Of a DNA stretch of 63,627 nt, positions 9,978-35,754 are shown in pieces. The DNA is from Pyrinomonadaceae bacterium (GTDB taxonomy: Bacteria; Acidobacteriota; Blastocatellia; Pyrinomonadales; Pyrinomonadaceae): NCBI GenBank assembly GCA_035646955.1, contig DASROI010000030.1:1-63627 (forward strand). Reading direction: 5' to 3'. The position numbers and the translations under genes were made by a program. The stretch's first letter is position 1, and each line of letters begins with the position of its first letter. The notes under the pieces were generated by a model that saw only the letters and a list, made by a program, of their open reading frames with translations, was not told where the DNA came from and did no database searches.

Positions 9978-10616
9978 TCACTCTTGCACTCGCTTTGACG
10001 CGAACGCGAAATTAAGCAGAATCCACTGCGCTATTGTCAATACAACACCTTGCTGGTCCTTTAAATCACCAGGTCCGCCTGATCGCAAAAGATAAAACTG
10101 AACAGGCATGACGGCGAAGACGAGGACCATCAGAATGGTGTTTCGTCCCGTCCACGGCGGCATGACTTGCGTAGTGCGTTCGCGAAGATCCCTGACTATC
10201 CAAACAATGGCTAATAGAGTCAATACGAACCAAAACAACGGCGCGATCCAGGTGAGTGACACGTCTAATCCCATGGTGTCGCCTTTAAATCGGTAGTCAT
10301 CCGGAAACTTGACGGCGTTGTAGATTGCATTAACCAGGGAAGAGCCAAGCCAAAGCAGCAACAACCAATGAAACGGTTGTCGGGCACCCCGCCAGCCGAA
10401 ATAAATGATCGCAAGCGCGATGAGCGCCTGGGCTACTACGAACCAGTAATCACCGGCAACACCGTGTCCGCCAAAGTCCTTACCGAGAAAAGAACTGCCC
10501 CATTCGTAACTTGGACCATCCATCACCCCTCGAATCAACGGTAACCAAACGGCAAGCATTGTGACTGCGGTGAAAATCAGGATGACCTTTAGGAGTTGAT
10601 CCGGGCGTGTTTTCAT
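9978..10616 (-). CDS. integral membrane protein of unknown function
   Basis: 212 aa with about six hydrophobic helices. Its start overlaps the stop of the upstream glycosyltransferase by 4 nt. Confidence 0.6.
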   Translation of the reverse strand: MKTRPDQLLKVILIFTAVTMLAVWLPLIRGVMDGPSYEWGSSFLGKDFGGHGVAGDYWFVVAQALIALAIIYFGWRGARQPFHWLLLLWLGSSLVNAIYNAVKFPDDYRFKGDTMGLDVSLTWIAPLFWFVLTLLAIVWIVRDLRERTTQVMPPWTGRNTILMVLVFAVMPVQFYLLRSGGPGDLKDQQGVVLTIAQWILLNFAFASKRVQE

Positions 10617-19932: not shown

Positions 19933-21813
19933 ATGAACCCTGTTCTTACAGCCCTGTTATTGTTTCAATCTCCCTCCCCTTCTCCCACGCCTGTCGTCGA
20001 CGCGCTCGAAAGGATGCCGGCGCTCTTCACCATCATTTACGTCGCCGGATTTGGTTTCATAATCCTACTGCTGTTCCTCAGTTTACTTCGCAGCAGAAAG
20101 CGACCACCAGCAACGGCCGCAATACCAGCTGACTTACCAAAAGAAGTTAGAAAGCGACTTGGCTCTGCTTCAACTAATCGAGGACTTCGCGCCCTGCGTT
20201 GGCTGTTCATCCTTCTTGCATTTGGACTTTTTGGATTTCACATCTACTGGGCTCGCTACGCAGCCGAAGATAACGAGACGTTTCAACAGCTGAGTTACAA
20301 AGACCTGCGGATGCGCCGGCTGTCCGAATCGACGCTGCGCGGATGGATCCTTGATAGAAGCGGCCGGTTGGACCAACCTCTCGCTTATTACAAACGCGAC
20401 TCGACGGGTGAAATTCAGCGTGAGTACCCGATGGATAAAGCGATGGCCCACTTGTTTGGCTCTGACCGCGGAGATCCGGGCCTGGAGCGCGCGTTGTTCG
20501 GAACCCAAAGTGGAGCGCTTCCGGAAGCATGGGACGTGGTCCGGCGGCGTACTCAGGAGTTTAAAGGAAATCAGGATGTTCGACTCACGATCGATCGCAA
20601 CCTGCAACAGGCGGCGGTGGACCAGCTAAAAGGAAAACACGGTGCAGTTGTAGTGTTGAATCCTCAAACGGGTGAAGTACTTGCACTCTACAGCGAACCT
20701 TCATACAGCCTGAGTGAAGTGTCTGACGAGGCGACATGGATTCGATTGGAGTCGAACGAGAGGGACAAGCCACTTGTGAGTAGAGCGCTTGGAGCTTACT
20801 ACATTCCTGGTTCGACCTTTAAAACAGTAACCATGACGGCTGCCTTCCTTGCGGGCGAACAGGACACGGAGTTCACCTGCAGCGGAGGTGGTTATTACGC
20901 AGCACCGGGCGCCAACGTTATCTACGACGATGGCGGTGCGGGTGAAGTACACGGCCGGATCGGCATAGACCAAGCGTACGAGGTTTCGTGCAACCAGTAC
21001 TTCGCACAAATGGGCGTCAAACTTGGACCAGAACGGCTTAAGCGTGCCGCACAATTACTGGGAATCGGTACCTATGACACGCCGGTTGAAGCCCTACGAG
21101 GACGCAAACAACCGGAGATCTGGAATGGGAGCACCGACGCCGTCAAGCGAGCTCTGGCTCCTCGTGAAGCCACGATAGTAACTGGTAAACAAGTGACTCG
21201 CTACGACCTTGCTCTCATGGGTTATGGCCAGGGCTACGCCGGTCAGATGACGCCGCTGCAGATGTCGTTAGCCGCTGCCGCGATCGGAAATACTGAGGGC
21301 AAGCTGATGAAACCAAAGATTGAATACAAACTTCCTCCGCAAGTATTCAATCAGGTTATGCCTGCGGCGACAGCCGAAAAGCTACGTTCCATCATGGGAC
21401 TGGTAACCGGTGGTCCAAGCGGAACAGCCCGCGGAGTCTTTGCACCGGTTAAAGCGGCAGGAATAAATACGGGAGGTAAAACAGGAACCGCTCAAAAAGT
21501 TGTCCCGGTTTATGATCCAAAGACCGGCGAACCGAAGCGGCAACATAAAGTTGAACGTGATAATCGGGGCAACATCATCCGTGAATACGACGAGGTCGTG
21601 ATGGACGAGGAGCATCCGCGCATTGATGGTTGGTTTTTGTGCATCGCACCATTGGAAAAACCTCAGTTGGCCATTGCGGTGATTGTTGAGGGAGGCGGAT
21701 ATGGCTCCAGATCGGCAGCGCCAATTGCTGCCGCACTCGTCCTAAAGGCCCGGGACCTCGGTTATTTCAGCGGCGTAAAACCGGCAACACCGGCCAAGAA
21801 AACAGTTAAATGA
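19933..21813 (+). CDS. class B penicillin-binding protein (PBP2/PbpA-type transpeptidase)
   Basis: 626 aa. Active-site triad motifs are STFK (GSTFKTVT), SCN (EVSCNQYF) and KTG (GGKTGTAQ). There are two hydrophobic segments at the N-terminus. Confidence 0.9.
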   Translation: MNPVLTALLLFQSPSPSPTPVVDALERMPALFTIIYVAGFGFIILLLFLSLLRSRKRPPATAAIPADLPKEVRKRLGSASTNRGLRALRWLFILLAFGLFGFHIYWARYAAEDNETFQQLSYKDLRMRRLSESTLRGWILDRSGRLDQPLAYYKRDSTGEIQREYPMDKAMAHLFGSDRGDPGLERALFGTQSGALPEAWDVVRRRTQEFKGNQDVRLTIDRNLQQAAVDQLKGKHGAVVVLNPQTGEVLALYSEPSYSLSEVSDEATWIRLESNERDKPLVSRALGAYYIPGSTFKTVTMTAAFLAGEQDTEFTCSGGGYYAAPGANVIYDDGGAGEVHGRIGIDQAYEVSCNQYFAQMGVKLGPERLKRAAQLLGIGTYDTPVEALRGRKQPEIWNGSTDAVKRALAPREATIVTGKQVTRYDLALMGYGQGYAGQMTPLQMSLAAAAIGNTEGKLMKPKIEYKLPPQVFNQVMPAATAEKLRSIMGLVTGGPSGTARGVFAPVKAAGINTGGKTGTAQKVVPVYDPKTGEPKRQHKVERDNRGNIIREYDEVVMDEEHPRIDGWFLCIAPLEKPQLAIAVIVEGGGYGSRSAAPIAAALVLKARDLGYFSGVKPATPAKKTVK

Positions 21814-23504
21814 AGAATCGCGCGTCATCGCACCTACTCATAATCTTCATCATTATCGGCCTTGAAATAGTCGGCTATCTAGGCGTTCACCGCGCCGCCG
21901 CTTTAAGAGGATATGAGACCTCTGTGATTGGCGGAGTTCGCGACCTGTTGATGTTTATTCCGCTGATCATTCTTGTCCTCTGGCTTTCACGGAGCAAACA
22001 CTTCATTGGAAACTGGGTATTGTTTACGACGGCGATTCTGCTCTTCTCGTTCGGGATGCTGGTCCAATATCGCCTGTACAGTGATCCGGAATACAACGCG
22101 CGAAACAAGGCTGCCGCTCGCGAGGAAAAAATGCAGGCGCTCCGGACTCGCTACATCATGGAAAACTATGATCCCGTCAAGAAGCAGATGATGGGATTAC
22201 CCCCAACTCCGGCGCAACCAATCCAGGTAAGTCAGATTCCACAGAAGCCCTCGAATTACTCGCTGTGGAATGCATTGACATCAAGCTACACATGGATTCC
22301 GATCTTTTCATTCCTGGCGCTGGCAATAGCTTATTCGTTGTGTTCACGCGATGGATTCTTGCTTTGGCTGCAACGTAACAGTTTTATCATCGTGCTCTTC
22401 ACGCTCGTTCCACTTGCAGGAGCGGTCGTAACTTCGAGCGCAGGTAAAGCACTCGGAAACATGACGCCCTGGGAGCCGTCAAAGATTCCTTTTCTCATTG
22501 GCTTCGCTGGAATACTTACAGCTCGTTATAAAGATTTAGCTGAGACGTACTGGGGAATCCCAAGGGCAAAGGACATCATTCCGTTACTAGTGATGGCTGC
22601 CATGCCATTCGTCCCGTTCTTCGCGCTGAAAGACTTTGGACAGATGCTCATCTTCAGCGGTGCTTACACAACACTTTATCTCGTAGCCGTCCGCCGTTGG
22701 CCACAGCTTCTGTTATTCGTGGGATCGATCGTGGTGGTCATTTCAATCCTTGTAGTTGGCGCCTTACCTCGCGATATCCAGGAGAAAGTGCCGCTGCTGC
22801 CAACTCTCGCTCGTCCGATAAGTGCGGCTCTGCCCTCTCGTATTCAACAACGATTTCACCTCTGGCTCGATGGATTCGATCCACCTTCACCTGAAGTCTC
22901 ATGGTGGAAGAAAGACTATGAGGAAGCACTACAGAGCGATCCACGTCTGAAAGAGCTGGCGGAACAGAGTCCGGCGATGCAGAAAGCAGTCAACATCGAC
23001 ATTTGGTTTGATAAGCTGGCCTTTCAACCGGCCCAGGCCGTGTTTGGTATTGCCGCGGGTCGCACCAGTGGACGCGGATTTGGGTTAGGTTTCCCGGAAG
23101 TGATTCCGATCGCCGACTCTGACTACGTTTATGCCGCGATCGCCGAAGAGACGGGACTATTGGGTGGAGCCATGGTGATACTAGCGGTGATCATTTTCGT
23201 GATCGCTGGAGTTCGCACTTCACTCGAGTCGCGTGATATGTTTACCAAACTTTGCGCGGCTGGTCTCACAGCATTCGTAGGTTTTCAGGCCTTAGTCAAC
23301 ATTGGTGGCATTCTTCGCGCACTGCCGATGACAGGAATCACACTTCCCTTTGTCAGTCACGGCGGATTTAGTTTGATTACTAGTTTCGCAATGTTAGGTA
23401 TGTTGTTGGCATTCTCGAACCGAAATGCTCGTGACCGCGTGATCGCCGAAATACCGGCGGTTAAAAGCTCTTCTTCTCCCCTTAAGCTGGAGGCAGTGCA
23501 ATGA
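21810..23504 (+). CDS. SEDS-family peptidoglycan polymerase (RodA/FtsW)
   Basis: 564 aa, polytopic. Motifs: IADSDYVYAAIAEETGLLGG and LPMTGITLPFVSHGGFSL. Its start shares an ATGA overlap with the PBP stop. Confidence 0.9.
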   Translation: MKNRASSHLLIIFIIIGLEIVGYLGVHRAAALRGYETSVIGGVRDLLMFIPLIILVLWLSRSKHFIGNWVLFTTAILLFSFGMLVQYRLYSDPEYNARNKAAAREEKMQALRTRYIMENYDPVKKQMMGLPPTPAQPIQVSQIPQKPSNYSLWNALTSSYTWIPIFSFLALAIAYSLCSRDGFLLWLQRNSFIIVLFTLVPLAGAVVTSSAGKALGNMTPWEPSKIPFLIGFAGILTARYKDLAETYWGIPRAKDIIPLLVMAAMPFVPFFALKDFGQMLIFSGAYTTLYLVAVRRWPQLLLFVGSIVVVISILVVGALPRDIQEKVPLLPTLARPISAALPSRIQQRFHLWLDGFDPPSPEVSWWKKDYEEALQSDPRLKELAEQSPAMQKAVNIDIWFDKLAFQPAQAVFGIAAGRTSGRGFGLGFPEVIPIADSDYVYAAIAEETGLLGGAMVILAVIIFVIAGVRTSLESRDMFTKLCAAGLTAFVGFQALVNIGGILRALPMTGITLPFVSHGGFSLITSFAMLGMLLAFSNRNARDRVIAEIPAVKSSSSPLKLEAVQ

Positions 23505-24997
23505 CCGAAAACACAAAGGCCTTCACCATCCAGTCCTCGTCGCTTTCAGACCGAGGGTTGAATGAGCGTCGACCTTTAAATGAAGACGCTTACCTGGCGG
23601 ATGCCCAGCGATCGATTTTTGCAGTGGCTGACGGTGTAGGTGGTGCCGAAGCCGGCGAAGTTGCTTCGCAAACAGCTATCGAAGTGCTCGATGAGGCTTT
23701 CAGGCACCAAACTGAAGGTGCAGATATCGAAGATTTAATGGAGCTCGCGATCCAAAGAGCCAACGCGTCTATTCATCAATTGGCCCAGGAGCACCAGCGG
23801 TTCTCAATGATGGCGACGACAGTCGTCGCACTACATCTAAAGGATAACATCGCCACGTTTGGACATGTTGGCGACTCACGTCTTTACCGGCTAACTCCTG
23901 ATGGAGAGCTTCACCGCGAAACACAAGATCACTCAATCGTCGAAGAAGAAGTACGCGCCGGGAGAATGACGCCCGAACAAGCCGCAAACCACCCTAGTAA
24001 AAACGTGATCAGCAGGGCTCTCGGAGCAGAACCGGTGGTCGAAGTTGATATGAAGACGATGGAGGTGGAAGAAGGTACTCAGTTTCTATTGTGCACCGAC
24101 GGGATCACTCGGCACGTGTCTGACGGTGAGATTCGCCGCTTGCTGGTTATTCACGAAGACCTTGAAGCAGTTTGTAATGAACTAAAGGAGCGTTGTTATG
24201 AACGAGGCGCTGAGGACAATCTGACGGTAGTCGTCGTCAGGGTTGGACCATACATTTCTGCCGACCAACGCTCTGAAGATCTTGAGCCGACTATCTCTCC
24301 GGAAAGCGAAGCAATGTATGCACAGAAGGATGGCCATCAGACGATGATGGCTACTGCAAATCCTCCCGGATTAGTGCCGGCGTCGCGCATTGCCTTTCCA
24401 GGTCCACCTGCTGACGGCGCCGCCGTTCCGGTCGAAAGATTAAACGTCGCGCCGGAACAAGCCCACCAGAAAAGTAATGGTACGGCCAAGCTCTTTGGTG
24501 TAGTGGTTGTTCTCGCTCTCCTGGCTGCCGCTTTCGTAGCAGGAGCACGTTTGAAGGACCGCATCCCTCTTTTTGCTGAAGCAGCGAAACCTACTCCTAC
24601 TCCGACTCCCGTGCCGCAGGTAGAAGAGCCATTTGTCCAATTCGAACGGGCAAGAAGACAAGTGGACTTGGATCCGCGAGCCTGGCTGGCAAACGACGTC
24701 GGCAAGGAACTCTTGAAGTCATCCGTTCAAGGTCCCCTCGACTCCCCCAACCCTGAATTTCTCTATTTGTACGGTCGGGCAAACTTACTGACTGGAAACC
24801 CTGACGAAGCGTCAAAGGCTTTTGAAGCCGCGATCGCAAAGTCTGATCAAAATCCATCGCCGGCAAATGCCACAGTGAAGAAGGATGCAACACTCGCGAT
24901 TGCCGCAGTCAGTTTGAAGACCTTCCGAGAGCGACAAAAGGCACTCGCCCACTACGACGAATTAACAAAGCCACCAGCTAACGCCAACGCCCCCTAA
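23501..24997 (+). CDS. PP2C-family Ser/Thr phosphatase with TM helix and extracytoplasmic helical tail
   Basis: 498 aa with ADGVGGAEAGEVAS, GDSRLYRL, CTDGITRHV, EDNLTVVVV and TM helix LFGVVVVLALLAAAFVAGA. Its start shares an ATGA overlap with the rodA stop. Confidence 0.9.
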   Translation: MTENTKAFTIQSSSLSDRGLNERRPLNEDAYLADAQRSIFAVADGVGGAEAGEVASQTAIEVLDEAFRHQTEGADIEDLMELAIQRANASIHQLAQEHQRFSMMATTVVALHLKDNIATFGHVGDSRLYRLTPDGELHRETQDHSIVEEEVRAGRMTPEQAANHPSKNVISRALGAEPVVEVDMKTMEVEEGTQFLLCTDGITRHVSDGEIRRLLVIHEDLEAVCNELKERCYERGAEDNLTVVVVRVGPYISADQRSEDLEPTISPESEAMYAQKDGHQTMMATANPPGLVPASRIAFPGPPADGAAVPVERLNVAPEQAHQKSNGTAKLFGVVVVLALLAAAFVAGARLKDRIPLFAEAAKPTPTPTPVPQVEEPFVQFERARRQVDLDPRAWLANDVGKELLKSSVQGPLDSPNPEFLYLYGRANLLTGNPDEASKAFEAAIAKSDQNPSPANATVKKDATLAIAAVSLKTFRERQKALAHYDELTKPPANANAP

Positions 24998-25054
24998 AGA
25001 TCGTTCGCTGATCTGTTTTTTTTGCATCTAAGCGATGCAAAATCGGGGCGGACT

Positions 25055-26593
25055 ATGTCAGAACTTAAACTTCAACACAGCAGACTCGACGGCCGGTACG
25101 ACATCCTTGAATGTCTTGGCCGTGGCAGTTACGCCGAGATCTACGTCGCGACGGACAACGCTGCTGTTGAAGGAGCGCCGCGAACGGTCGTTATCAAGGC
25201 ACTGAATCTAAACCTGCAAGAAGAGACGGATGCTGAACTCGAACGGACCCTTGTCGCCAACTTCCAGAACGAGGCCGTTGCACTTGATCGAGTTCGCCAC
25301 CCGAATGTCATCAACCGGTTAGGTCATGGCACCGCAATCGATCTGGGCGGCACGACTTTCCACTACATCGTCCTTGAATATCTGCCGGGTGGTGATCTTG
25401 CCGCCCTCACTCGCGGACGACCTTTGAATATTCAGAAAGCTGTTTCATATCTTGAGCAGGTCTGTTCGGGTCTGGCACACGCCCACAAGTGCGGCGTAAT
25501 TCATCGCGACATCAAACCGCAGAACCTGTTACTTACGGAAGATAAGCAGACTGTCAAGATTGCGGACTTCGGAGTCGCCAGGATCGACGCCAGCGACGGC
25601 GCGATAACGCGGGTAGGAACCAATATCTACTCCGCGCCGGAACACAACCCACTCGTCCAAACAGGTCAACTCTATACTTCGGGGCTACCGTCGGTACGAG
25701 ATCACCTGACTCCCGCTGCCGACATCTACTCGCTTGCCAAGACAACCTACACTTTGCTTGCTGGGGAGTCGCCCAGGCGTTTTGCCCAACATTCAATTAC
25801 TGAACTGCCGCTCACGATGGCGCAGGCCGACTGGTCACAACCGGTTTTGCGCGTCCTCAGAAAAGCGACACAGAGTAGGCCAGAAGAGAGATATCAGACG
25901 GTTGAACAATTTTGGGACGACTTTGCTGAAGCTACTTTACCACCGACTAGACCTTTGAAGATGCCCGAGATTGAAAATGAGATGCGGCGGAAACCGAGCG
26001 CTGACTTGTCGATCGAACCAGACGAGTTTACAGAAGCAGCGCCACCTCGCCCTCATTTCGCCCAGCCGGAACGAGTGCCGGTGCTGGACGCAGAACCACA
26101 AAGACGTCCGCGTATTGTTGTGCCTATCCAGCTTGAAAATCGGCGCGAAATGGACCATTTGGCTCGTCGAGCTGAGACTCCGGCTGCTGCAAACAAAAGG
26201 AACCAACGGCAATCTCTTGATAGTGTTATGCCGCGCGGACGGACTCGTCGGGCGGTAGTCGCCGCAGGGTTAATTCTGGCTTTCTCGGGAATGTTGCTGG
26301 CGACGCACAAGTACGTAACGTCACATTGGAACCCGCTTAGCAGTGTTCCGCAGTTAAGCGACACTTTCATAATTGGCCGGGAAGGTGTTACAACGACTGA
26401 TGTTAATTTACGCCCTGTGGCAAATACGCAGAATGCTCCGATTGGCATGGCCGAGTTTGGGTCGAAGGTAAAAGTGCTCAGCGCTGACAATAACTGGTAC
26501 GAGGTCCAAGTGTTGGAACACGCTCGGCCCAAGTCCGATCCCTATTCATCCGATCGTGGCTGGGTCAATAAGCGCTTTGTAAAGTTTGATTGA
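25055..26593 (+). CDS. Hanks-type Ser/Thr protein kinase with TM helix and C-terminal SH3b-like domain
   Basis: The ORF track starts at the TTG at 25022; I prefer the ATG at 25055. Motifs: GRGSYAEIY, VVIKAL, HRDIKPQNLL, DFGVAR, SAPEH, and TM helix VVAAGLILAFSGMLLA. The C-terminal VNLRP...WYEVQV...GWVNKRFV resembles SH3b. Confidence 0.9.
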   Translation: MSELKLQHSRLDGRYDILECLGRGSYAEIYVATDNAAVEGAPRTVVIKALNLNLQEETDAELERTLVANFQNEAVALDRVRHPNVINRLGHGTAIDLGGTTFHYIVLEYLPGGDLAALTRGRPLNIQKAVSYLEQVCSGLAHAHKCGVIHRDIKPQNLLLTEDKQTVKIADFGVARIDASDGAITRVGTNIYSAPEHNPLVQTGQLYTSGLPSVRDHLTPAADIYSLAKTTYTLLAGESPRRFAQHSITELPLTMAQADWSQPVLRVLRKATQSRPEERYQTVEQFWDDFAEATLPPTRPLKMPEIENEMRRKPSADLSIEPDEFTEAAPPRPHFAQPERVPVLDAEPQRRPRIVVPIQLENRREMDHLARRAETPAAANKRNQRQSLDSVMPRGRTRRAVVAAGLILAFSGMLLATHKYVTSHWNPLSSVPQLSDTFIIGREGVTTTDVNLRPVANTQNAPIGMAEFGSKVKVLSADNNWYEVQVLEHARPKSDPYSSDRGWVNKRFVKFD

Positions 26594-26632
26594 GTGGGTA
26601 CAAATTAGAGTAACTCCACGTGGAGGCACGGC

Positions 26633-27490
26633 TTGGGACTGCTTGACTCGATAAGAAAATGGATAGATGGCGAAACTGGCGAAGATCTACTCGAGGCCGC
26701 TGGTGAGCACGCAAAGCCACGGCGGGTTTGGGAAGAGTTCTTAGTCAAGATCGCACGTGAGGTTGAGGCGGCCATGCAGCGGGAGATGTTCACTCCCCCG
26801 GGTGGTCCAACCTATATCCCTCGTGAGTACATTGTCTACTTGAGTTCGGAAGACGACAAAGATTGGCAAGGCGATAAGCGCCGTGGTTTGGAACAGGGTC
26901 TCTTTCATGTGTTGTCGGAACGCGCGCGAGAGTTAAGCGGGTCGACTCAATTGGCGGTTAAGTCGTTTGCGGTTGAATTAAGAGTTGATGGCACGCTCAA
27001 CAAAGGTGAGTTTCGCGTCCAGGCGGTATGGGATGAAACTGAGAGTGGACACACGATGGTCACACCTCGAGTCGATCCATCGCGTTCTGCCCAACCGTTC
27101 AACCCGAACGAGACTATCAGAGAGATTGCTACTGAGACCGGTGAAACTGAACAAACCGTCGTCCGGCCAAAGGCTCTCCCGCTTTTCTCTGTAGAGGTTT
27201 GGCGCAGCGGTGTTCGCGAGGCTGTAGTCCCCATCATGAAGAGTGAGATCACAATCGGTAGAGGATCGCGAAGTGTTTCAGTTGATCTACCGCTCAAAGG
27301 TGATCCTGAGGTCAGTCGAGTACACGCTGTATTGTCGCGCGATAACGAAGGTAGGTTCTGGCTGGTGGCGAAAGGACGTAACCCGACTACAGTTAATGGG
27401 CGTGAGTTACCGCGTGAGGAAGCGACTGAAGTTGCACCTGATCAGCGAATATCGATCTGCATGTTTGTCCTTCGGATTCAACCCGCATAG
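26633..27490 (+). CDS. FHA-domain protein, second FhaA-like copy
   Basis: 285 aa with a TTG start preceded by GGAGG at 7-nt spacing. FHA: GRGSRSVSVDLPLKGDPEVSRVHAVLSRDNEGRFWLVAKGRNPTTVNGREL. The N-terminal IPREYIVYLSSEDD...GLFHVLSERARE is of FhaA N-domain type. Confidence 0.85.
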   Translation: MGLLDSIRKWIDGETGEDLLEAAGEHAKPRRVWEEFLVKIAREVEAAMQREMFTPPGGPTYIPREYIVYLSSEDDKDWQGDKRRGLEQGLFHVLSERARELSGSTQLAVKSFAVELRVDGTLNKGEFRVQAVWDETESGHTMVTPRVDPSRSAQPFNPNETIREIATETGETEQTVVRPKALPLFSVEVWRSGVREAVVPIMKSEITIGRGSRSVSVDLPLKGDPEVSRVHAVLSRDNEGRFWLVAKGRNPTTVNGRELPREEATEVAPDQRISICMFVLRIQPA

Positions 27491-27496
27491 TCTGCC

Positions 27497-27515
27497 AGCT
27501 CATAGCGACTGAGCT
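27497..27515. terminator. weak hairpin in the 25-nt convergent gap (possible bidirectional terminator)
   Basis: AGCTCA-tagcgac-TGAGCT lies between the FHA stop (27490) and the HD-GYP stop (27516). There is no clear U-tract. Confidence 0.3.
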
Positions 27516-28778
27516 TCAACCAGCACTCTCGACTTTTACTTTCATCTCAGAGTCGAGGTCATCAATCAAATCTTTCAGAAGCAACGGAGCTTCGTCAGGA
27601 TTGATATAACCCTTGCCGAGCATCTTCATGATCCGGCGCTCTTTCGCTTCGCCGGTTACTTCCTTCAACATCGCCCTGGCAAAGGCGGTAACAACCTTAC
27701 CGTCAAATTGCTTTCCACTGTTTTGCCTGAGGTCGCGCACCACATCCGGAAACGAGCGACGCCTCCGGTAAGGACGATCCGTTGTCATCGCATCAAATGA
27801 ATCAGCGAGCGAAACGATCTTGGCGCCAAGCGGAATCTGTTCGTCCGTTAGACCATCGGGATAGCCCCGACCATCAAGGCGTTCATGGTGATACTTAGCC
27901 ATCAGCGGAATGTCTGCGTAAGGATGATTGATCGGCCTTAGAATTTCGTATCCAGCGGCAGGATGGCGATTCAACTCGCTCGACTGTTTGGCGTCGATTT
28001 GATAAGGCGCGTTGATTATGTCGCGTTCAACTATCAACTTGCCAACATCATGAAGGTATCCAGCTATCTGAATTCCCTCGACCTCTTCTTCGCTCCAACC
28101 CAACTCTCTCGCGATGATTTCACTGTAGCGCCCTACTCGTTCGGAGTGTCCCTGGGTGTACTTGTCTTTGATATCTATGGCAGCGGCAAACGCCTTCACG
28201 GTGTCGCGATAGATGGCCCTCAAGTCTTGGTAAAGGCGTAAATTCTCTTCTGCTCGTTGGGCCAATTGTTCCATAAGCCGGTGAGTATGAATCCCAACGC
28301 CTATATGACGGACCATAGCGTGAATCGTGTCGAAGTCTTCGGGCGAGAATCCTTCGCCGCTGGCTTTACCACCAAGCAGGACAAATCCGGTCGTCTCGTT
28401 GCGAACAATCATGGGAATCACGAGTTCGATTCCCTCCTCGGTAAGACGGTCACGGTGTCGCTTAATAAAACTATTACTTCCCTCGATGTCTTTGACGCTC
28501 AAAGCGCAGTTATCTTCGATCAGAAATGCCGCTCTTTCTGTCTCATCGATGGACAACTCTTTGGCCACCGCATCATCGAGACCCCAGATCGCAACGCACT
28601 GAAGTGAATCACTATGACCACACTCGACCACGGCGCCGCGGCGGAGTGCAAGCGTGCCCAGGAGCAAGTGCATCGAGGTGCGCACCATTGCTGCAAAGTC
28701 ACCGGTATTGGCGACTTCCTGGCCCAGATCTGCTAGCGCACCGAATGTATGGATCAGTTTTTGAGTCGATGGCTCCAT
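27516..28778 (-). CDS. GAF-HD-GYP protein (predicted c-di-GMP phosphodiesterase)
   Basis: 420 aa. N-terminal GAF: IPMIVRNETTGFVLLGG. HD-GYP: QGHSERV, YLHDVGK, HHERLDGRGYPDGL, DSFDAMTTDRPYR. Confidence 0.9.
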   Translation of the reverse strand: MEPSTQKLIHTFGALADLGQEVANTGDFAAMVRTSMHLLLGTLALRRGAVVECGHSDSLQCVAIWGLDDAVAKELSIDETERAAFLIEDNCALSVKDIEGSNSFIKRHRDRLTEEGIELVIPMIVRNETTGFVLLGGKASGEGFSPEDFDTIHAMVRHIGVGIHTHRLMEQLAQRAEENLRLYQDLRAIYRDTVKAFAAAIDIKDKYTQGHSERVGRYSEIIARELGWSEEEVEGIQIAGYLHDVGKLIVERDIINAPYQIDAKQSSELNRHPAAGYEILRPINHPYADIPLMAKYHHERLDGRGYPDGLTDEQIPLGAKIVSLADSFDAMTTDRPYRRRRSFPDVVRDLRQNSGKQFDGKVVTAFARAMLKEVTGEAKERRIMKMLGKGYINPDEAPLLLKDLIDDLDSEMKVKVESAG

Positions 28779-28782
28779 CTAA

Positions 28783-29250
28783 TCAATGGGCTACTGTTTT
28801 TGCGTCAAAACCTGAGAGATTCGAGAGGGCTTCTTGCTCGTTCTTTGCGAGCACTACGTGTCGGGTCAACCCTAACATTTCAAAGAGTTGAATGGTTTGA
28901 ATGTTTACATCGGAAAAAACTATGCGGGCGCCATTTTTCTCGGCGACGTTAATTATACCCAGGAGGATAGAGATACCAATGCTATTGACGAGTTTAGTGT
29001 CGCTGAAGTCAATCACGAGAGCACGACAACCAGAATCCAACTGACGGCGGCACTCGCGCTCAATCTTTTCGCCCGTTAGCTTGTTGAGGTAGTCACTGGC
29101 ATAAATCACGGCCGTAGTGCCAACACAATGCGAACGTACTGCACCACTTATTATCTCCACCAGACAGTCCTCTCTGCCCTGAAAATAAAATGATCGTTGT
29201 AAGACGTTGTAACTTTTGGATGTGATCTTCAAGTAGAGCGGAGACCACAT
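28783..29250 (-). CDS. STAS-domain protein (anti-sigma-factor antagonist, SpoIIAA/RsbV-like)
   Basis: 155 aa. ALVIDFSDTKLVNSIGISILLG aligns with the vlDlsxvxfiDSsGl motif, and the phosphorylatable Ser is conserved (N-S-I-G). The gene starts 10 nt after the upstream stop and ends 4 nt before the downstream start. Confidence 0.8.
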   Translation of the reverse strand: MWSPLYLKITSKSYNVLQRSFYFQGREDCLVEIISGAVRSHCVGTTAVIYASDYLNKLTGEKIERECRRQLDSGCRALVIDFSDTKLVNSIGISILLGIINVAEKNGARIVFSDVNIQTIQLFEMLGLTRHVVLAKNEQEALSNLSGFDAKTVAH

Positions 29251-29260
29251 CGAATCCCTG

Positions 29261-31534
29261 TTAAGAAGTGCGACTACGGAGGTACTTTGTCATTCGGAGG
29301 CTAGTACCTTCATCAACTCGTTCGAACTCGACTTCATCCATGAGTGTCCGGATCAGTCTAAGTCCCCAACCGCGTCGTTCTTCTGCGCCCTCGTCGGGTT
29401 CTGGCTTAGTCGTAATCGCGCCGTTAGTGCCGATATTGGTTGGCACAATGCCGCGGCTCGAAATTGTGACGACTAATCTATCACTTTCGACCCGAAAACG
29501 CTGATAAATTTTTCTTTCCGGGCTAAAACTGTGCTCCGCAGCGTTCAGACAAGCCTCCACGATCGCCGTTTTAATCTGATTGATCGCTTCGGAACCAAAG
29601 TCCAGCCTCCGGGCTACCTGCTCAACAGCGTTTGCCGCAATGAGTTCATTCTCGTCGCCCATTGGTACGATCATCACGAATTCATCGGTATCTTCAGGGA
29701 CGCTGGCAGGCTGATTTTCACCCAAAAGTGAGCTAAGTAGCTCAATTTGAGACAAACTCGAGCTGAAACCGTGACGGCGCTCAATTTCTTGGGCAGCCTC
29801 GTCCGAGAAACCCTCTCTTGAGATTAGCCACAGCTGAGAACGCCTGAAACTCAGCCGGCTCCCTACGGACTCCAACCGCTCCAGCCATAACTGAGCGACA
29901 TCCAGCGCCACCTCAAGCTTCGAGTCAATTTCCGCTACCAGCCAGATAACTTCATTAGCGTCGGTGTAGATTGCTTCGCCAAAAGAATGAGCGATGACGC
30001 ACCTGTCATCATCACAAACCTGGCGCATGTCGCTGTCAAACGCTACACAACTTGCAACGTGAATTGTCTGCGGCAGTTTTACGAACTCTGTCTCACTCTC
30101 AAGTTCTGCCGGTAGTTTTTCGCGGTCCAGCCCTCTGTACTTCTGGTTAAAGCCACCGTTGTTCAGCAGGACACTCGGTATACGCTGGCAATCAAATCGC
30201 GTCATCAGGTTACGCAGATCAAGACGGCCCATACGGCGATAATGACGAGCCATCGTATGAGGAGCGCGCTTTAGGGAATCAGTCAACGCATCGGCCGCAA
30301 CCAGGGCTCGCGACTCATTGTTGACGTCCAGCCTGTACCGTACTTTTAAATAGTCGTGCCATGGTTGTGGTCCAGAACCCGTCTCTATCGTGCCTTCGTT
30401 CCAGTTGATAAACTCCTGAACATGCAAGCGATGCAGGATGTCCTCGAGTTCTTCGGCATCAAGTCGAAGGTGTCTGCGCCAGGTTTCGAAGGAAGACGCC
30501 TGGTCCTGGCTGGCAATTGCTTCCCACAACAAACGGATCAAACCCTGGCGGGTATCGAGACGAGGCGCAGCTTCCTCGAGTAGATCGCTGAAGTGCCGAT
30601 GAAGATGGCCACCTAAGAGTTCGTCGACATAAAGCCGTTCACAATCAAGGTAAGAAATCAGTGCTACATTTCTTTCGCGCGCAGCTTGCAACACGGTGCT
30701 AATGAAGAAAGGACTTCCCGCAAACTGCTGGACCAGTAGATCTCTAACCTCGGTGCTTATTGCGACTCGTTGGCGACTTGCTACTTGCTCAACAAGTAAG
30801 CTCGCCTGTTCGGATTCAAGCTGTTCAAGGCGAAGGATATCCAGCTTTTCAAAATCGACTTCGGCCTGGTGAGCGGCGGAGAGAATTTGTCGCCTTAGAC
30901 CAGCAACAACGAATGAGAAACCGCCGCGAGCGAAGACGCGCATTACCTCCGTTCCCAACACGACAGCACCGTTCAGGTACTCAGCCAGCTGTGCTCCATC
31001 CAATATAACGAACGGCCGCCCTCTGGCTGCGGGCACACGTTGCGGGGCCCCAAGGCAGAATCGGACCAGGGCGCGATCATCGTTACTAAACCGCAACCGT
31101 CCATAAGAGCTAACCATCTGTTGGATCCACGGGAGGTCTGCAGGCGGAGCGAGATCCACCAGGTCGTCCAACGTTAGAGACGCATAACACAACGATGGTT
31201 CGTTACGACGGAAAGCAATGTACTGGTGTAGAAATGCGTTTAGAAACTCTATAGCAGTACTGACTGCGGTCGTGTCGTTTCTCGTGAAGGCAAAATATAT
31301 TGGAATAACTTCAGAACGAAGATTGAAGATCTGATCAAAGCTTTGACGCAGAAGTTCAGAAACTCCCGCGGAAGGAGCCATCAGCACGAGCAGACCGCGC
31401 TGGGACCTTTCAATGGCGGTTTGCTCGATCAGTTTTCTTAATTCGGTCGTGCGCCCGATGAAACCTTCCCGGGCAACCCGAGCCAGAATCCGGCTACTTG
31501 GTTCATTCGGGTTAGGCTTCATTTGAGCTCGCAC
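29261..31534 (-). CDS. 757-aa fusion: degenerate AAA_16/STAND-like NTPase N-domain, unassigned middle region, and C-terminal RsbW/SpoIIAB-type HATPase kinase domain
   Basis: The N-terminal FIGRTTELRKLIE...GLLVLMAPSAGVSELL aligns to FVGRxxEL...GExGIGKSxL, with the Walker A Lys replaced by Val. Walker-B-like: PFVILDGAQ. The C-terminal 140 aa carry EACLNAAEHS (N box), GWGLRLIR (G2) and DEGTSLRMTKYL. The start overlaps the upstream GGDEF gene by 23 nt. Confidence 0.75.
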   Translation of the reverse strand: MRAQMKPNPNEPSSRILARVAREGFIGRTTELRKLIEQTAIERSQRGLLVLMAPSAGVSELLRQSFDQIFNLRSEVIPIYFAFTRNDTTAVSTAIEFLNAFLHQYIAFRRNEPSLCYASLTLDDLVDLAPPADLPWIQQMVSSYGRLRFSNDDRALVRFCLGAPQRVPAARGRPFVILDGAQLAEYLNGAVVLGTEVMRVFARGGFSFVVAGLRRQILSAAHQAEVDFEKLDILRLEQLESEQASLLVEQVASRQRVAISTEVRDLLVQQFAGSPFFISTVLQAARERNVALISYLDCERLYVDELLGGHLHRHFSDLLEEAAPRLDTRQGLIRLLWEAIASQDQASSFETWRRHLRLDAEELEDILHRLHVQEFINWNEGTIETGSGPQPWHDYLKVRYRLDVNNESRALVAADALTDSLKRAPHTMARHYRRMGRLDLRNLMTRFDCQRIPSVLLNNGGFNQKYRGLDREKLPAELESETEFVKLPQTIHVASCVAFDSDMRQVCDDDRCVIAHSFGEAIYTDANEVIWLVAEIDSKLEVALDVAQLWLERLESVGSRLSFRRSQLWLISREGFSDEAAQEIERRHGFSSSLSQIELLSSLLGENQPASVPEDTDEFVMIVPMGDENELIAANAVEQVARRLDFGSEAINQIKTAIVEACLNAAEHSFSPERKIYQRFRVESDRLVVTISSRGIVPTNIGTNGAITTKPEPDEGAEERRGWGLRLIRTLMDEVEFERVDEGTSLRMTKYLRSRTS

Positions 31535-33224
31535 CTTCGACTAAGTCCTGGTAGAACTCAATGCGATCCTTTCCCAAACTCTTTGCTCGATAAAGCGCTC
31601 GGTCCGCTGCCGCAATAACCGTTTCGGCCGAGTTGACGAGTGACGAGAAACTCGACACTCCGATACTGATGGTAACGTGGCCCTGTGGTTGCGACTTGCC
31701 GTGGGGAAAGTGTGTAGTAGCAACACGCTGGCGAATACGGTCAGCGATCACAGCGGCTTCTGTCGCAGTTGTTTGCGGCAAAAGGATAGAAAACTCTTCG
31801 CCTCCGTAACGGGAGGCAACGTCCGCGGATCTGAGAGCCCCTTTTAGACAGTGTGCCGTGATTTGCAGAGCCAAATCTCCAGCTTGATGTCCATTGTTGT
31901 CGTTGTATGCTTTGAAATCGTCAATGTCGATCATCAAAAAGCACATCGGGTCTTCGTTACGCTTTGATCGATTGACTTCTTCCGTTAAGCGTTCTTCGAG
32001 ATATCTTCGATTCGGCAGACCCGTTAAAGGGTCTGTGATCGACATCAACTGGAAAGCAGTTGCGCGCTCTTGCCACTCGGCTTTTTCGAGGGCCAGTGCT
32101 ACCTGTGGTCGAATAATCTCCAGCAGACTAAGGTCGACCTCGTCATAGTTTCGACCGCCGACTTTATCGGCAATGTTCAAGACGCCAATTTTTCGCCCGC
32201 CTATCGTGATCGGAAAACTGATAAACGACTTCGTCTTGTAGCGACGCTCTGCGGGTGCAGGTGTAATGGCTGAACTCTCGACGTCATCGATGATCAACGC
32301 TTTTCCCGATTCAATGACCGAACCTGAAACACCCTCTCCAACTCGCATGTGCCCGACGGAACCCGGATCAACACTCATTCCAATGGCAGCTTTCAAAACA
32401 AGTTTGTCAGCACCCTCATCGAAGACCATCAAAGACGCGCGTTCTGAATTGAGTAACTCCCTGGAGTTGCTGATGATCGAGTAATAAGTCTTGGTTGGAT
32501 CGTCGGAGCTGATGCGTTGGAGAAACCGCTGGAGAGTATCTGTAAAGCGCGAACTATGTTCGAGTTCTCCCCTCAGGCGTTCAATCTCTAATTCCAGGCT
32601 CCGATCCGTAACTGCAGGAGCAGCGGTGTCGATGCGCGCTATTGCGTCAGTTGTTGGACCACTTGCGCCATTGGCCTGAACCAGAGAGTGGGTTGAAGGC
32701 CCAGGTGCTGCTCCATACCTGACAGCGCCCTTTCCTACTCGTTCAGCCAGGTCTCGCAATCGATGTCGTTCCGCAAAGATTGCATTCGAGAAAAAAGAGT
32801 CAGACTCGAGTTCTTTCAATTCACCGCTGCGATATCGCTCTACCAACAGTTGGTAATCAGCTCCGTTGACGAATGCTCTTCCACCAATTACCGCCAGCGC
32901 TCTGCCCTCGATTTGAACCGGTTGAGCAAAACACATGAGGCCTGCATGGCATTTGTATTCGATGGTTGAGTTTGCCTGGGTGGCTTTACGGTGAGCTTCC
33001 CCGCAAAAGGGATCACAACGTTTCTTGTGTGTATTAGAAGATTGAAAGGCTGAGCAGACAGAGTTGTTGTTGGACACAACGAGGGCTGGCGGCTGAGGGC
33101 CGCTCACCAAAAGCATCGACAGGCCGAAAGAATTTGCGAGACCGTCCTGGAGTTCTGGCCATCCAGTTGGGGCATCCTCACGGTTTTCCTGTCCCCTTGA
33201 GGAACTGGGGGAGTTATTTGACAT
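31512..33224 (-). CDS. PocR-like sensor, coiled coil, GAF and GGDEF diguanylate cyclase
   Basis: 570 aa. PocR-type Cys/His pattern: CSAFQSSNTHKKRCDPFC...YKCHAGLMCFAQPVQIEGRALAVIGG. GAF: FISFPITIGGRKIGVLNIAD. GGDEF: active site RYGGEEF with an RSAD I-site five residues upstream. Confidence 0.88.
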   Translation of the reverse strand: MSNNSPSSSRGQENREDAPTGWPELQDGLANSFGLSMLLVSGPQPPALVVSNNNSVCSAFQSSNTHKKRCDPFCGEAHRKATQANSTIEYKCHAGLMCFAQPVQIEGRALAVIGGRAFVNGADYQLLVERYRSGELKELESDSFFSNAIFAERHRLRDLAERVGKGAVRYGAAPGPSTHSLVQANGASGPTTDAIARIDTAAPAVTDRSLELEIERLRGELEHSSRFTDTLQRFLQRISSDDPTKTYYSIISNSRELLNSERASLMVFDEGADKLVLKAAIGMSVDPGSVGHMRVGEGVSGSVIESGKALIIDDVESSAITPAPAERRYKTKSFISFPITIGGRKIGVLNIADKVGGRNYDEVDLSLLEIIRPQVALALEKAEWQERATAFQLMSITDPLTGLPNRRYLEERLTEEVNRSKRNEDPMCFLMIDIDDFKAYNDNNGHQAGDLALQITAHCLKGALRSADVASRYGGEEFSILLPQTTATEAAVIADRIRQRVATTHFPHGKSQPQGHVTISIGVSSFSSLVNSAETVIAAADRALYRAKSLGKDRIEFYQDLVEGASSNEA

Positions 33225-33651
33225 CCAGCATTTCGGGCCTGCTGTTCCGTCGTTTGAGTCTGGCTCGCTCTGGGCAAGACTAAATCAGCAGCCGTCTCTC
33301 ATCTACCAAGTATAGGTTTCAAACGTATGTCCTACAACCACTTAGCGTCTCTTCCGGGGATTGCCGGCGCGCTTGGGGCATGACTATTGTGTTAAACGGC
33401 GAATAGCATTCGTCTTTCACTATGCTTGCCTGTTTTTCGTTAGAAACAAAGAATCGCTGTGAAGATCCTGCCAGAACTTTGAAGCGACTCCGACAAAATA
33501 GCAAGTGGAAGAAGTGACTCATCAAGACCCGTTACACGACCATGAGTTGAGCAACTTGCTGTCAACTCGGCTCACCCAGAAACGGAGAGTTACTATCAAC
33601 CACAATTTCAGCAGCCACGACAGTCGCTGCGGTCCTGGTTCTGTGAAGGGT

Positions 33652-34731
33652 TCACAATGCTCGGAGGCCGGGGGCGTCGTTGGGTGCGACGGTTTCAATA
33701 TCGGGCTGTTGCGGACTAATCCTGATGCAGGCGGCGAAATGATTGGGCTTAATCTCTACAAGTTCCGGAACTACCTCTTTGCATTTATCGATCGCATAAG
33801 GACAGCGTGTGTGAAACCGACAACCTGACGGTGGATTGATTGGCGAAGGAACATCGCCTTCGAGAACGATGCGTTGCCTTGATGCTTCGACAGCGGGATC
33901 GGGCACGGGTACGGCCGAGATGAGGGCTCGGGTGTAAGGCATCAGAGGCTCGTCGTAAATTGTCTTTGCATCGGCGACTTCAACCAGCTTTCCCAGGTAC
34001 ATCACTGCCACTCGATCCGAAACGTGCCTGACGGCGCGTAGGTCATGAGAGATGAAAAGATAGGTCAAATTCTTTTCGCGCCGAAGTCGTTCGAGCAAAT
34101 TCATGATCTGAGCTTGAATCGATACGTCAAGTGCGGATATTGGTTCATCAGCAACGATAAAATCCGGATCTACCGCCAGGGCCCGGGCTATTCCAATTCG
34201 CTGGCGTTGACCACCAGAAAACTCATGAGGATAGCGTTTGATAAATCGTTTGCTGAGACCAACTGTTTCCAGCAGCTCTTGAACTCGACGTTCACCATCT
34301 TTGCCGCGGGCCAAACCAAACGTATCAAGTGGTTCACCGACAATCTGGCCAATCGTCATCCGCGGATTCAGAGACGCATATGGATCCTGAAAGATCATCT
34401 GGAGATTCCTGCGCTGCTCCCGAAGATCACGCGAGTTTAACTTGGACAGATCCTTGTCGCGGTAAAAAATCTGTCCGGACGTTGGTTCAATCAACCTTAG
34501 GACTGCTCGACCAAGTGTCGACTTACCGCAACCTGACTCACCGACCAGTCCCAGGGTCTCTCCTTTGAGAATCTCTAGTGATACTCCATCAACGGCTTTC
34601 ACTACTCGTCTTGTCGAACCTGCACCAAGCAACTTGTCGAAGACGCCACCACCGCCCATGTCGAAATGCACTTTCAAATCTCGAATCGAGATCAGAGACG
34701 AACCGTTGGTTTCTGTATTCGTGGCATTCAT
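33652..34731 (-). CDS. peptide ABC transporter ATP-binding protein (OppF/DppF-type)
   Basis: 359 aa with [33 protein letters not shown] and a C-terminal oligopeptide-type extension, [11 protein letters not shown]. Confidence 0.9.
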
Positions 34732-34737
34732 TGTTGG

Positions 34738-35754
34738 CTAACTGGCTTGCGAGCTGCCTCCGGATTCTGCGAATACATCTCCTGCAAAATGACAGAGCGA
34801 GAAATGGTCGGCGTTCAGTTGTACAAAAGGTGGAAATTCTTGACGGCAAATTTCCTCAACGCGTTCACAGCGCGGAGCAAATGGACACCCGGGCTTTAAA
34901 TGTGCAACGTCTGGAGGCAGACCTGGAATCTGATAGAGCTTTCCCTGTTCGGCCGTCGGATCGGGCACCGAACGTAATAACCCCTTGGTGTAGGGATTCC
35001 CCGGCGTAGCGAATAATTCTCTGGTCCTGGCCTGCTCAAATATTTTGCCGGCATACATAACGATGACATGGTCCGTCATACCAGCAACGACACCCAAGTC
35101 GTGTGTTATCAGGATGACGCTGGTCCCGGTATCCTGTTTTAGTTTTTTAATGAGTTCGAGAATCTGTGCCTGGATTGTGACGTCAAGGGCGGTAGTAGGT
35201 TCATCGGCAATCAGGAGTTCCGGATGGCACGAGAGCGCCATCGCAATCATGACACGTTGGCGCATGCCTCCTGAGAACTCGTGCGGATAATCGTCGACGC
35301 GCATCCTCGCATCAGGAATTCCAACGGTTTCCAGCATTCGAATCGCATGCTCGTAGGCTTGGGCTCTCTTATGACCGAGATGCAGTTCAGTCATCTCCAT
35401 TAACTGCCTCGAGATTCTCATAAAGGGATTCAGCGAGGTCATAGGATCCTGGAAAATCATCGCGATACGCCGGCCTCTAATTTTTCGGACCGCATCCGAA
35501 GGCAACAACAAGATATCTTCACCGTTGAAGAGAACTTCGCCAGAAACGATTTTCCCGGGCGGATCAGGAATAAGCCGGAGAATCGAAAGATTGGTAACTG
35601 ATTTGCCCGAGCCCGATTCCCCGACGATACCAAGTGTCTCGCCGCGATGGAGTTGGAATGAGATTCCATCGACCGCCTTCACCAGGCCGTCGTCGGTATT
35701 AAAGTAGGTCCTTAGTTCGTTTACTTCGAGGAGTGTTCCGTTTTTTTGGGTCAT
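34738..35754 (-). CDS. peptide ABC transporter ATP-binding protein (OppD/DppD-type)
   Basis: 338 aa with [33 protein letters not shown] and GCPFAPRC. Confidence 0.9.

Follow-up and report, generated by a model that had tools for sequence, protein, structure and literature searches.

Positions 27516 to 33224 of the window, by which we mean the whole 63,627-nucleotide stretch of Pyrinomonadaceae DNA analysed here (contig DASROI010000030.1, positions 1 to 63,627), carry on the minus strand four genes that encode a PocR-GAF-GGDEF diguanylate cyclase, a 753-amino-acid protein in which a STAND-like module is fused to an RsbW-type domain, a STAS protein and a GAF-HD-GYP phosphodiesterase. With moderate confidence we propose that they form a self-contained control module for cyclic diguanosine monophosphate (c-di-GMP), in which the partner-switching pair, RsbW-type domain and STAS protein, targets the co-encoded c-di-GMP enzymes and not a sigma factor. 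Partner switching is the textbook control of sigma factors; its rewiring to c-di-GMP synthesis is, to our knowledge, known from three systems only, namely Sia, Hsb and Bgr.

The cassette persists in unrelated surroundings

The original prediction had read the four genes as one operon and proposed that related genomes be searched for the same neighbourhood. The gene order does hold in 80 species genomes (tblastn) and in 80 metagenome loci, the latter retrieved with a profile of the clade whose Walker A motif is intact, and in some clades the flanks are unrelated; a lack of synteny in relatives, named in the prediction as a refutation, is thereby clearly contradicted. Reference species genomes with a match number 328, and the module is present in at least 160 sampled loci. 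Cyclase, fusion, STAS and HD-GYP genes stand in the same order and orientation in the species genomes, and the metagenome loci show this order both in the window's broader clade and in a distant acidobacterial-type clade, here called clade A (L084-L104). Kinase, STAS and GGDEF cyclase genes are genetically linked: counting only loci with enough flank, the cyclase gene lies upstream of the fusion gene in 123 of 123, and downstream of it the STAS gene is found in 108 of 116 and the HD-GYP gene in 86 of 91. The junction between cyclase and kinase genes has a median length of 8.5 nucleotides (nt), with 33% overlapping, and that between STAS and HD-GYP genes one of 6.5 nt; the spacer between kinase and STAS genes has a median of 89 nt (136 loci).

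In clade B the flanking genes, an Opp transporter and FHA/kinase/PP2C/FtsW genes, are likewise conserved, and for this reason synteny within clade B alone would not prove a linkage. Clade A has other flanks, with DUF4384 proteins, a sigma54 response regulator and a PEGA/FGE-sulfatase kinase. In the most distant full-length member (P0258, 27% identity) the cassette is complete and is bordered by a secretin/TPR region on one side and a gene of the metallo-beta-lactamase fold on the other. Because clades at 27-33% identity keep the cassette amid unrelated flanks, the comparative genomics strongly support a functional linkage of the four genes. The four proteins also diverge in parallel from locus to locus.

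A core trio in Nitrospirota and loci without a STAS gene

Short relatives of 545-570 amino acids (aa), found with P0258 in Nitrospirota and Dissulfurispiraceae, consist of ATPase_2/AAA_16 and HATPase_c_2, have no middle domain and carry an intact GKT Walker A motif. In four of the five short-form loci examined the kinase gene is followed by a STAS gene and then a GAF-HD-GYP gene; in the fifth an HDOD protein takes the place of HD-GYP. The flanking genes differ among the four trio loci, and in no case does a GGDEF gene precede the trio. Overlaps of 4 nt are found in L165, in L168 and, at a single junction per locus, in L167 and L169. Since the trio alone occurs in Nitrospirota-type loci, the conserved core is STAND-RsbW, STAS and HD-GYP. 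HD-GYP thus looks like the ancestral partner, and the PocR-GAF-GGDEF gene and the nuclease-fold insert described below are, by their distribution, additions in the acidobacterial-type form of 710-780 aa. By distribution and junction lengths the two enzymes are not symmetric around the STAS protein, STAS being tied to HD-GYP and the cyclase to the kinase.

Directly upstream of the trio in L165 (Nitrospirota, GCA_040752355.1) lies a gene for a protein tyrosine phosphatase/dual-specificity phosphatase (5681-6787), and directly downstream one for an EAL protein (10353-11471); the former enzyme might stand in for the missing PP2C.

The loci with a cyclase-kinase pair and no STAS gene are L060, L062, L065, L082, L083, L104, L122, L142, L145 and L146, of which L122, L145 and L146 have a flank too short for scoring HD-GYP. 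In L082 and L083 the pair is followed by an unrelated ORF (open reading frame) of 141-158 aa and a PemK toxin pair; this ORF was considered as a divergent STAS gene and rejected, as no similarity was found.

Gene boundaries and junctions

All four minus-strand ORFs of the original prediction (33224-31512, 31534-29261, 29250-28783 and 28778-27516) were recovered, with two of the starts moved; all positions within the cassette given below refer to this strand. The cyclase gene (31512-33224, 570 aa) follows from the ORF call and Pfam and the phosphodiesterase gene (27516-28778, 420 aa) from Pfam, and the gap of 4 nt between the STAS and HD-GYP genes stands. The fusion protein had been given 757 aa and its gene a 23-nt overlap with the cyclase gene. 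Its approximately 120 orthologues measure 746-778 aa, mostly 752-754, and as they align from the Met at 31522 we place the start at this ATG, leaving a gene of 753 aa (29261-31522) and an overlap of 11 nt. A gap of 10 nt had been reported between the kinase and STAS genes, which is an artefact, because the longest ORF had been taken for STAS. Its reading frame is conserved only from a GTG with a GGAGG-like Shine-Dalgarno sequence ahead of it (72 relatives); in the window the latter is GAGAGG at 29169-29174. Since GTG and ribosome-binding site are conserved in these relatives, we assign the STAS start to GTG 29160, so that the gene spans 28783-29160 (125 aa; Pfam STAS 5.8e-11) and begins 100 nt after the kinase stop.

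In the resulting 100-nt spacer (29161-29260) only the Shine-Dalgarno sequence and the GTG are conserved in an alignment of 53 loci. This spacer could be the place for an internal promoter or attenuator. A GC-rich hairpin with a T-run is present in the spacer of L002, L003, L005 and L006 and absent from that of the window; where present, it could be a partial terminator setting the kinase:STAS ratio. An extra ORF of approximately 185 aa lies between the kinase and STAS genes in L069 (6459-7013) and L071 (5510-6061). Judged from spacing alone, the four genes of the window are probably co-transcribed. The 427 nt ahead of the cyclase gene (33225-33651) are the presumed promoter region by their position; a consensus promoter scan returned nothing there and one promoter-like site within the STAS gene. 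Terminator-like matches numbered 12 where 6.9 ± 2.9 were expected, an unconvincing enrichment. As no Rfam family matched positions 26000-35000 of the window at E<=0.1, this region holds no c-di-GMP riboswitch or other known RNA.

The domains named in the original prediction (PocR, GAF, GGDEF, HATPase_c_2, STAS and HD/HD_5) were all assigned by Pfam, and its motifs, RSAD with GGEEF, HDVGK, HHERLDGRGYP and VNSIGIS, were all found in the translations. Because the domain matches all far exceed the Pfam thresholds, the four genes are not a chance pattern. The proteins closest to the fusion protein are annotated as Pyrinomonadaceae (Acidobacteriota).

The STAND-RsbW fusion protein

When the N-terminal 621 aa were searched against 1.84 billion cluster representatives (E<=1e-3), the fusion family came to 486 clusters at 50% identity. 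Among the 150 representatives listed, 86 have at least 690 aa, up to 842 aa, the rest being shorter and probably partial. Since every full-length member examined also carries a C-terminal HATPase_c_2 domain, the fusion constitutes a family and is not a one-off.

This C-terminal domain is the only Pfam match of the window's protein (PF13581, 9.6e-20; aa 613-750, 29273-29686), leaving about 630 aa otherwise unassigned. By sequence it matches RsbW (PDB 6m36) at 2.3e-9, and with Foldseek it superimposes on Bacillus subtilis RsbW of the RsbV/RsbW complex and on SpoIIAB with a template modelling score of 0.93 and a root-mean-square deviation of about 2 Å. An N-box (E656..N660..H664, 29531-29557) and a G2 loop (RRGWGL, 29360-29377) are in place; N-box E..N..H and G2 RRGWG are nearly invariant across most of the family. 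At the G1 position the protein reads I-S-S-R-G (29450-29464), and alignment with RsbW and SpoIIAB, in which the G1 Asp is present, puts Ser689 at the Asp site. In GHKL ATPases this Asp touches the adenine amino group. Elsewhere in the family it is replaced by Asn, Ser, Cys, Thr, Pro, His, Lys, Ala or Glu. The GHKL motif set is thus incomplete, with N-box and G2 present and the G1 Asp gone, and the term RsbW-type kinase should be read as a fold assignment, based on sequence and model.

In an AlphaFold2 model of the whole protein (42-sequence alignment, mean predicted local distance difference test score, pLDDT, of 83.8) four parts are seen, aa 20-235, 240-430, 440-600 and 613-750, with a pLDDT of about 90 across aa 10-430. 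The P-loop NTPase-like domain (aa 20-235, 30818-31465) is recognized by Foldseek, and the helical and winged-helix region (aa 240-430, 30233-30805) by Foldseek and the modelled secondary structure; together they have the P-loop, helical, winged-helix order of a STAND NTPase. The best Foldseek match of the NTPase region is the ATPase_2 protein PAB2304 (2qen, E 1.4e-7), and alignments of approximately 400-430 columns extend to Orc1/Cdc6, CED-4 and the plant NLR NB-ARC protein NRC (E 1e-7 to 1e-5). Distant members of the family give weak Pfam matches to AAA_16, ATPase_2, AAA_22 and nSTAND1. Sequence searches of the PDB, with single sequence and profile, returned only RsbW and SpoIIAB and no solved relative of the N-terminal region.

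The Walker motifs of a functional STAND NTPase are degenerate in the window, which reads APSAGVSE (A49-P-S-A-G-V54-S-E, 31355-31378, Val replacing Lys) and, for a Walker B-like motif, VILDG (30989-31009). The Walker A Lys is absent in 81 of 81 close orthologues and in 76 of 86 diverse representatives. Only 10 of the 86, and the short family, retain GK[ST], and intact Walker motifs are confined to clade A and the short family. The second acidic residue of Walker B is lost (D-G) in the window's clade, and the P-loop region is still strongly conserved despite the loss of the Lys. From these motifs the STAND scaffold of the window's clade is probably a pseudo-NTPase. The description of the protein as a giant NTPase-like kinase therefore holds for its folds, STAND/Orc1-Cdc6/NB-ARC-like and RsbW-like, and needs qualification as to the residues, the Walker A Lys and the G1 Asp being missing.

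Between the winged-helix region and the RsbW-type domain lies an inserted alpha/beta domain (aa 440-600, 29723-30205), delimited by a domain model and Foldseek, with the conserved motif AEIDSKLE (29912-29935); it is absent from the short Nitrospirota form in the coverage map. Modelled alone, it reaches a pLDDT of 90.3, and its best Foldseek matches, MspJI, NucS/EndoMS, AF1548 and AspBHI, are weak (E 0.02-0.06). A PD-(D/E)xK restriction-endonuclease-like fold with a conserved (D/E)-S-K-L-E motif is what these matches hint at, and we treat it as a lead only. An identity as an Avs-like anti-phage STAND protein was considered and rejected on the PADLOC defence models, which gave no specific match to the four proteins: no match for the cyclase, fusion and STAS proteins, and only generic HD-domain matches for the HD-GYP protein.

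The c-di-GMP enzymes and the STAS protein

The cyclase is composed of a PocR sensor domain (32823-33155, Pfam 8.9e-14), a GAF domain (32085-32498, GAF_2 6.5e-16) and a GGDEF domain (31566-32039, Pfam 6.7e-49; NCBIfam GGDEF 1.8e-52). Motif search places an RxxD I-site (RSAD, 31821-31832) five residues ahead of the active site GGEEF (31791-31805), so that the motifs of product inhibition and of catalysis are both present: RSADVASRYGGEEF. Relatives keep RxxD with GGEEF in clade B and RxxD with AGDEF in clade A. As the NCBIfam model of SiaD (NF038266) scores 170 bits against a cut-off of 290, with a match that covers only the GGDEF domain, the protein is not a SiaD equivalog. Cys and His residues are conserved in the PocR domain (aa 24-134), in the arrangements C..C...C..H and KCHAG..C, and point to a cofactor, metal or redox, more than to a simple organic ligand.

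The HD-GYP protein has a weakly matching GAF domain (28290-28694, GAF_3) and an HD-GYP domain (27693-28190; HD_5 4.4e-32, HD 2.5e-19) with the motifs HDVGK (28038-28052) and HHERLDGRGYP (27858-27890). Both motifs are kept in 45 of 48 ORFs of relatives, the other three lacking one or both in the recovered ORF. The idea that the GAF domains of cyclase and phosphodiesterase are paralogues sensing one ligand was rejected, as they have no detectable mutual similarity.

The small protein is a single STAS domain (PF01740), with TIGR00377 and TIGR02886 matching below cut-off. Its predicted phospho-acceptor is Ser60 (codon 28981-28983) in the motif LVNSIGIS, at the position of the phospho-site of SpoIIAA and RsbV. 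Clades A and B show L[VI]NS[IV]G[IV]S without exception, down to a kinase identity of ~30%; the motif has NS in a Nitrospirota locus and NT, with Thr, in the Dissulfurispiraceae locus L166. As the only exchange at this otherwise fixed position is Ser to Thr, the Ser is likely to be a real phospho-acceptor.

Neighbouring genes and phosphatases

As had been stated, there is no sigma factor and no PP2C within the four-gene unit. Nor was a sigma factor found near the unit in the window, and in nine Pfam-annotated neighbourhoods from two phyla none was found, and no PP2C, that belongs to the cassette. An RsbU-type phosphatase at 2749-4680 had been named as the nearest; it is a real PAS-GAF-SpoIIE protein (minus strand, ~24 kb from the cassette), but a PP2C-family enzyme lies closer, the PstP-like PP2C_2 and TPR phosphatase at 23501-24997 on the plus strand, 2.5 kb from the unit. 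In other clades, neither was seen to accompany the cassette. The PAS-GAF-SpoIIE protein is a candidate for the phosphatase of phosphorylated STAS (STAS-P).

The closer enzyme belongs to a plus-strand operon of cell-wall signalling, annotated as a penicillin-binding protein transpeptidase, FtsW/RodA, PP2C with TPR, Hanks kinase with SH3, and FhaA_N with FHA (19933-27490). This actinobacterial-style operon converges on the cassette with 25 nt between the stop codons. Operons of its type adjoin the cassette throughout clade B and not in other clades. The Hanks kinase had seemed to be linked to the cassette in clade A too, an appearance that arose because the clustering had used the kinase domain. 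What adjoins the cassette in clade A is another kinase, of the PEGA/FGE-sulfatase type, beside the sigma54 regulator, and we therefore place the FHA/kinase/PP2C operon outside the module.

Farther away, the window contains a sigma54-dependent response regulator (40775-42235, minus strand) and a HisKA/HATPase_c histidine kinase (43354-45456, minus strand). The cassette has a sigma54 regulator for a neighbour in clade A loci (L092) and L164 as well, which may be coincidental. A plus-strand ORF of 756 aa (55059-57329), between a 257-aa ORF and a DUF255/thioredoxin-like protein, has no Pfam match at E<=1e-4.

Relation to known systems

The cassette resembles SiaABCD of Pseudomonas aeruginosa, composed of the PP2C SiaA, the kinase SiaB, the STAS-like DUF1987 protein SiaC and the cyclase SiaD, in that the genes for a kinase and its small phospho-acceptor protein accompany that for a diguanylate cyclase, with no sigma factor among them. 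Unphosphorylated SiaC binds and activates SiaD (PMC8457831; PMC7647112). Unlike the present unit, SiaABCD has its own PP2C and no phosphodiesterase, whereas here a PP2C is missing and an HD-GYP enzyme is included. SiaC, a DUF1987 protein, is phosphorylated on Thr, whereas the small protein of the cassette is a canonical STAS domain with Ser; the kinase SiaB is small and stands alone, whereas here the kinase domain is fused to a STAND scaffold of ~600 aa and has lost the G1 Asp. Orthology to SiaD, SiaB or SiaC was not found, the NF038266 score being below cut-off and the STAS protein not being a DUF1987 protein.

A STAS antagonist in a c-di-GMP setting is also what relates the cassette to HptB-HsbR-HsbA-HsbD of P. 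aeruginosa and BgrSTUWV-BgrR of Sinorhizobium meliloti. A STAS-type protein controls the cyclase through direct binding in HsbA-HsbD (PMC5085249), as in BgrV-BgrR and SiaC-SiaD (PMC8457831), and in Hsb and Bgr its phospho-state decides whether the cyclase is engaged (PMC5085249; PMC8457831). In contrast to the present unit, Hsb and Bgr still have a PP2C/kinase regulator (HsbR), and their output reaches sigma or anti-sigma targets as well; their cyclase gene is nearby but outside any fixed four-gene cassette, and they have neither an HD-GYP partner nor a STAND fusion.

With RsbW-RsbV-sigmaB and SpoIIAB-SpoIIAA-sigmaF of Bacillus the cassette shares the C-terminal fold, the position of the STAS Ser, the N-box and G2. 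It differs in having no sigma factor, in that the kinase is the tail of a 753-aa protein and in the replaced G1 Asp; the NCBIfam equivalog models stay far under their cut-offs, with 59 against 145 bits for RsbW and 35 against 115 for SpoIIAB/SpoIIAA. The ~400 N-terminal aa have the domain order of the STAND/ATPase_2 (PF01637) NTPases, such as PAB2304, Orc1/Cdc6, CED-4/Apaf-1 and NLR NB-ARC proteins, and unlike these have lost the Walker A Lys (Val54) and the second Walker B acid and carry an RsbW domain as effector. The phosphodiesterase, with its GAF-HD-GYP order and intact HD and GYP motifs, is like PmGH-type enzymes; the architecture is catalogued in a census of HD-GYP proteins that discusses regulation via fused sensor domains only and leaves STAS, RsbW and anti-sigma unmentioned (bioRxiv 10.1101/2021.11.05.467447).

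In the full-text literature searched, no system like the present one and no STAND-RsbW fusion was described, in agreement with the claim that the arrangement is not a described system. We judge the module to be a partner switch wired to c-di-GMP metabolism; what sets it apart is that it has HD-GYP as a partner, a STAND fusion and a GHKL pocket of atypical make-up, and that its gene set is self-contained.

Proposed mechanism and its alternatives

Based on gene order and motifs, we propose that the RsbW domain of the 753-aa protein would bind the STAS protein and phosphorylate Ser60, and that the STAND scaffold, the winged-helix region and the nuclease-fold insert may set the timing through ligand- or oligomerisation-dependent changes. 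In one phospho-state the STAS protein would bind the GAF-HD-GYP phosphodiesterase and alter its activity, a wiring that would be ancestral and, in Nitrospirota, the sole one. An RsbW domain free of STAS may in turn engage the PocR-GAF-GGDEF cyclase, as an anti-sigma factor does its sigma factor; the cyclase-kinase pair outlives the loss of STAS and HD-GYP. A single switch would then drive synthesis and breakdown of c-di-GMP in opposite directions, PocR and the two unrelated GAF domains would provide independent small-molecule or redox inputs, and STAS-P would be dephosphorylated by a phosphatase encoded elsewhere. The suggestion of the original prediction that the phospho-state of STAS may arbitrate between synthase and hydrolase is likewise a hypothesis.

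Several points speak against this proposal, each step of which we infer from gene order and motifs. The unit encodes no cognate phosphatase, and the spacer of ~90-100 nt divides it into two tight pairs. The G1 Asp is missing in every fusion-family member examined, as at Ser689 of the window, and a subclade represented by P0225 and P0236 (765 and 842 aa) is without the N-box Asn and His and the G2 glycines, with its Walker A intact; by its motifs this subclade is an unambiguous pseudokinase version of the family. Since the G1 Asp is gone and the subclade has lost N-box and G2, kinase activity may be absent or atypical. The cyclase-kinase pair occurs without STAS in ten loci, nine of them also without HD-GYP where the flank suffices, and as these loci keep the pair the STAS protein cannot be a requirement of the cyclase-kinase relationship. 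Finally, regulation of an HD-GYP enzyme by a STAS protein was not found in the literature searched.

The loss of the G1 Asp is the starting point of an alternative that we regard as possible though doubtful, in which the RsbW domain acts as a pseudokinase scaffold that binds only, a conformational change or oligomerisation of the STAND module drives the switch, and the STAS Ser/Thr is phosphorylated by an unlinked kinase, for instance of the Hanks type, or is kept for binding. It is compatible with the c-di-GMP enzymes as output. It would account for a G1 Asp that is absent throughout the members examined, for the further losses in P0225 and P0236 next to an intact Walker A and for a cassette without a cognate PP2C, and a Hanks kinase/PP2C operon directly adjoins the cassette in clade B. 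These kinase and PP2C neighbours are, however, missing in clade A, L164 and the Nitrospirota loci; the near-invariance of N-box and G2 in most members suggests that nucleotide and Mg binding is retained, and an invariant phospho-acceptor with one Ser-to-Thr lineage is the pattern of a real phospho-site. That the four genes are adjacent merely by inherited gene order and share no function we consider highly improbable: the conserved flanks of clade B would fit, but the cassette persists with entirely different flanks in clade A, L164 and the Nitrospirota triads, its junctions are overlapping or very short and the fusion family always has the cyclase upstream (123/123).

The enzymes may also be the input of the switch and not its output, setting a local pool of c-di-GMP (or GTP) that STAND-RsbW senses through the Asp-less pocket, the degenerate P-loop or the nuclease-fold insert, while RsbW and STAS act on a distal target, a sigma factor or other. 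A parallel is known in Streptomyces, where c-di-GMP acts on RsiG-sigma-WhiG. RsbW-type domains classically bind sigma factors, and a c-di-GMP-dependent anti-sigma complex is mentioned in PMC13232838. A domain that keeps the Mg-binding N-box and G2 and in which the adenine-contacting Asp is systematically replaced fits a changed ligand, and the P-loop region is strongly conserved although its Lys is gone. We nevertheless hold this explanation to be unlikely, given that no linked sigma factor is present in the nine annotated neighbourhoods of two phyla, that the fusion protein showed no known motif for c-di-GMP binding and that the tight coupling of STAS and HD-GYP is easier to explain by a physical complex.

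Implications

A broader proposal, which we put forward tentatively, is that the cassette represents an unrecognised class of partner switching, spread over two phyla, in which STAND-RsbW and an almost invariant STAS protein would directly and reciprocally control HD-GYP and, in Acidobacteriota, the cyclase, and which may use or sense a guanine nucleotide. As the adenine-binding Asp became Asn or Ser, GTP, c-di-GMP or pGpG is possible instead of ATP. If true, this would make a closed c-di-GMP toggle, possibly a bistable one, working without a sigma factor or a dedicated PP2C. The Asp-less GHKL pocket is in any event a concrete, testable oddity. Should the wiring of the partner switch to the co-encoded enzymes be true, it would provide the first protein-protein regulator of HD-GYP enzymes and one switch acting on both synthesis and degradation of c-di-GMP, it would extend the STAND repertoire by an RsbW effector domain, and it would open a way into the c-di-GMP signalling of Acidobacteriota, a phylum that is dominant in soil but poorly studied.

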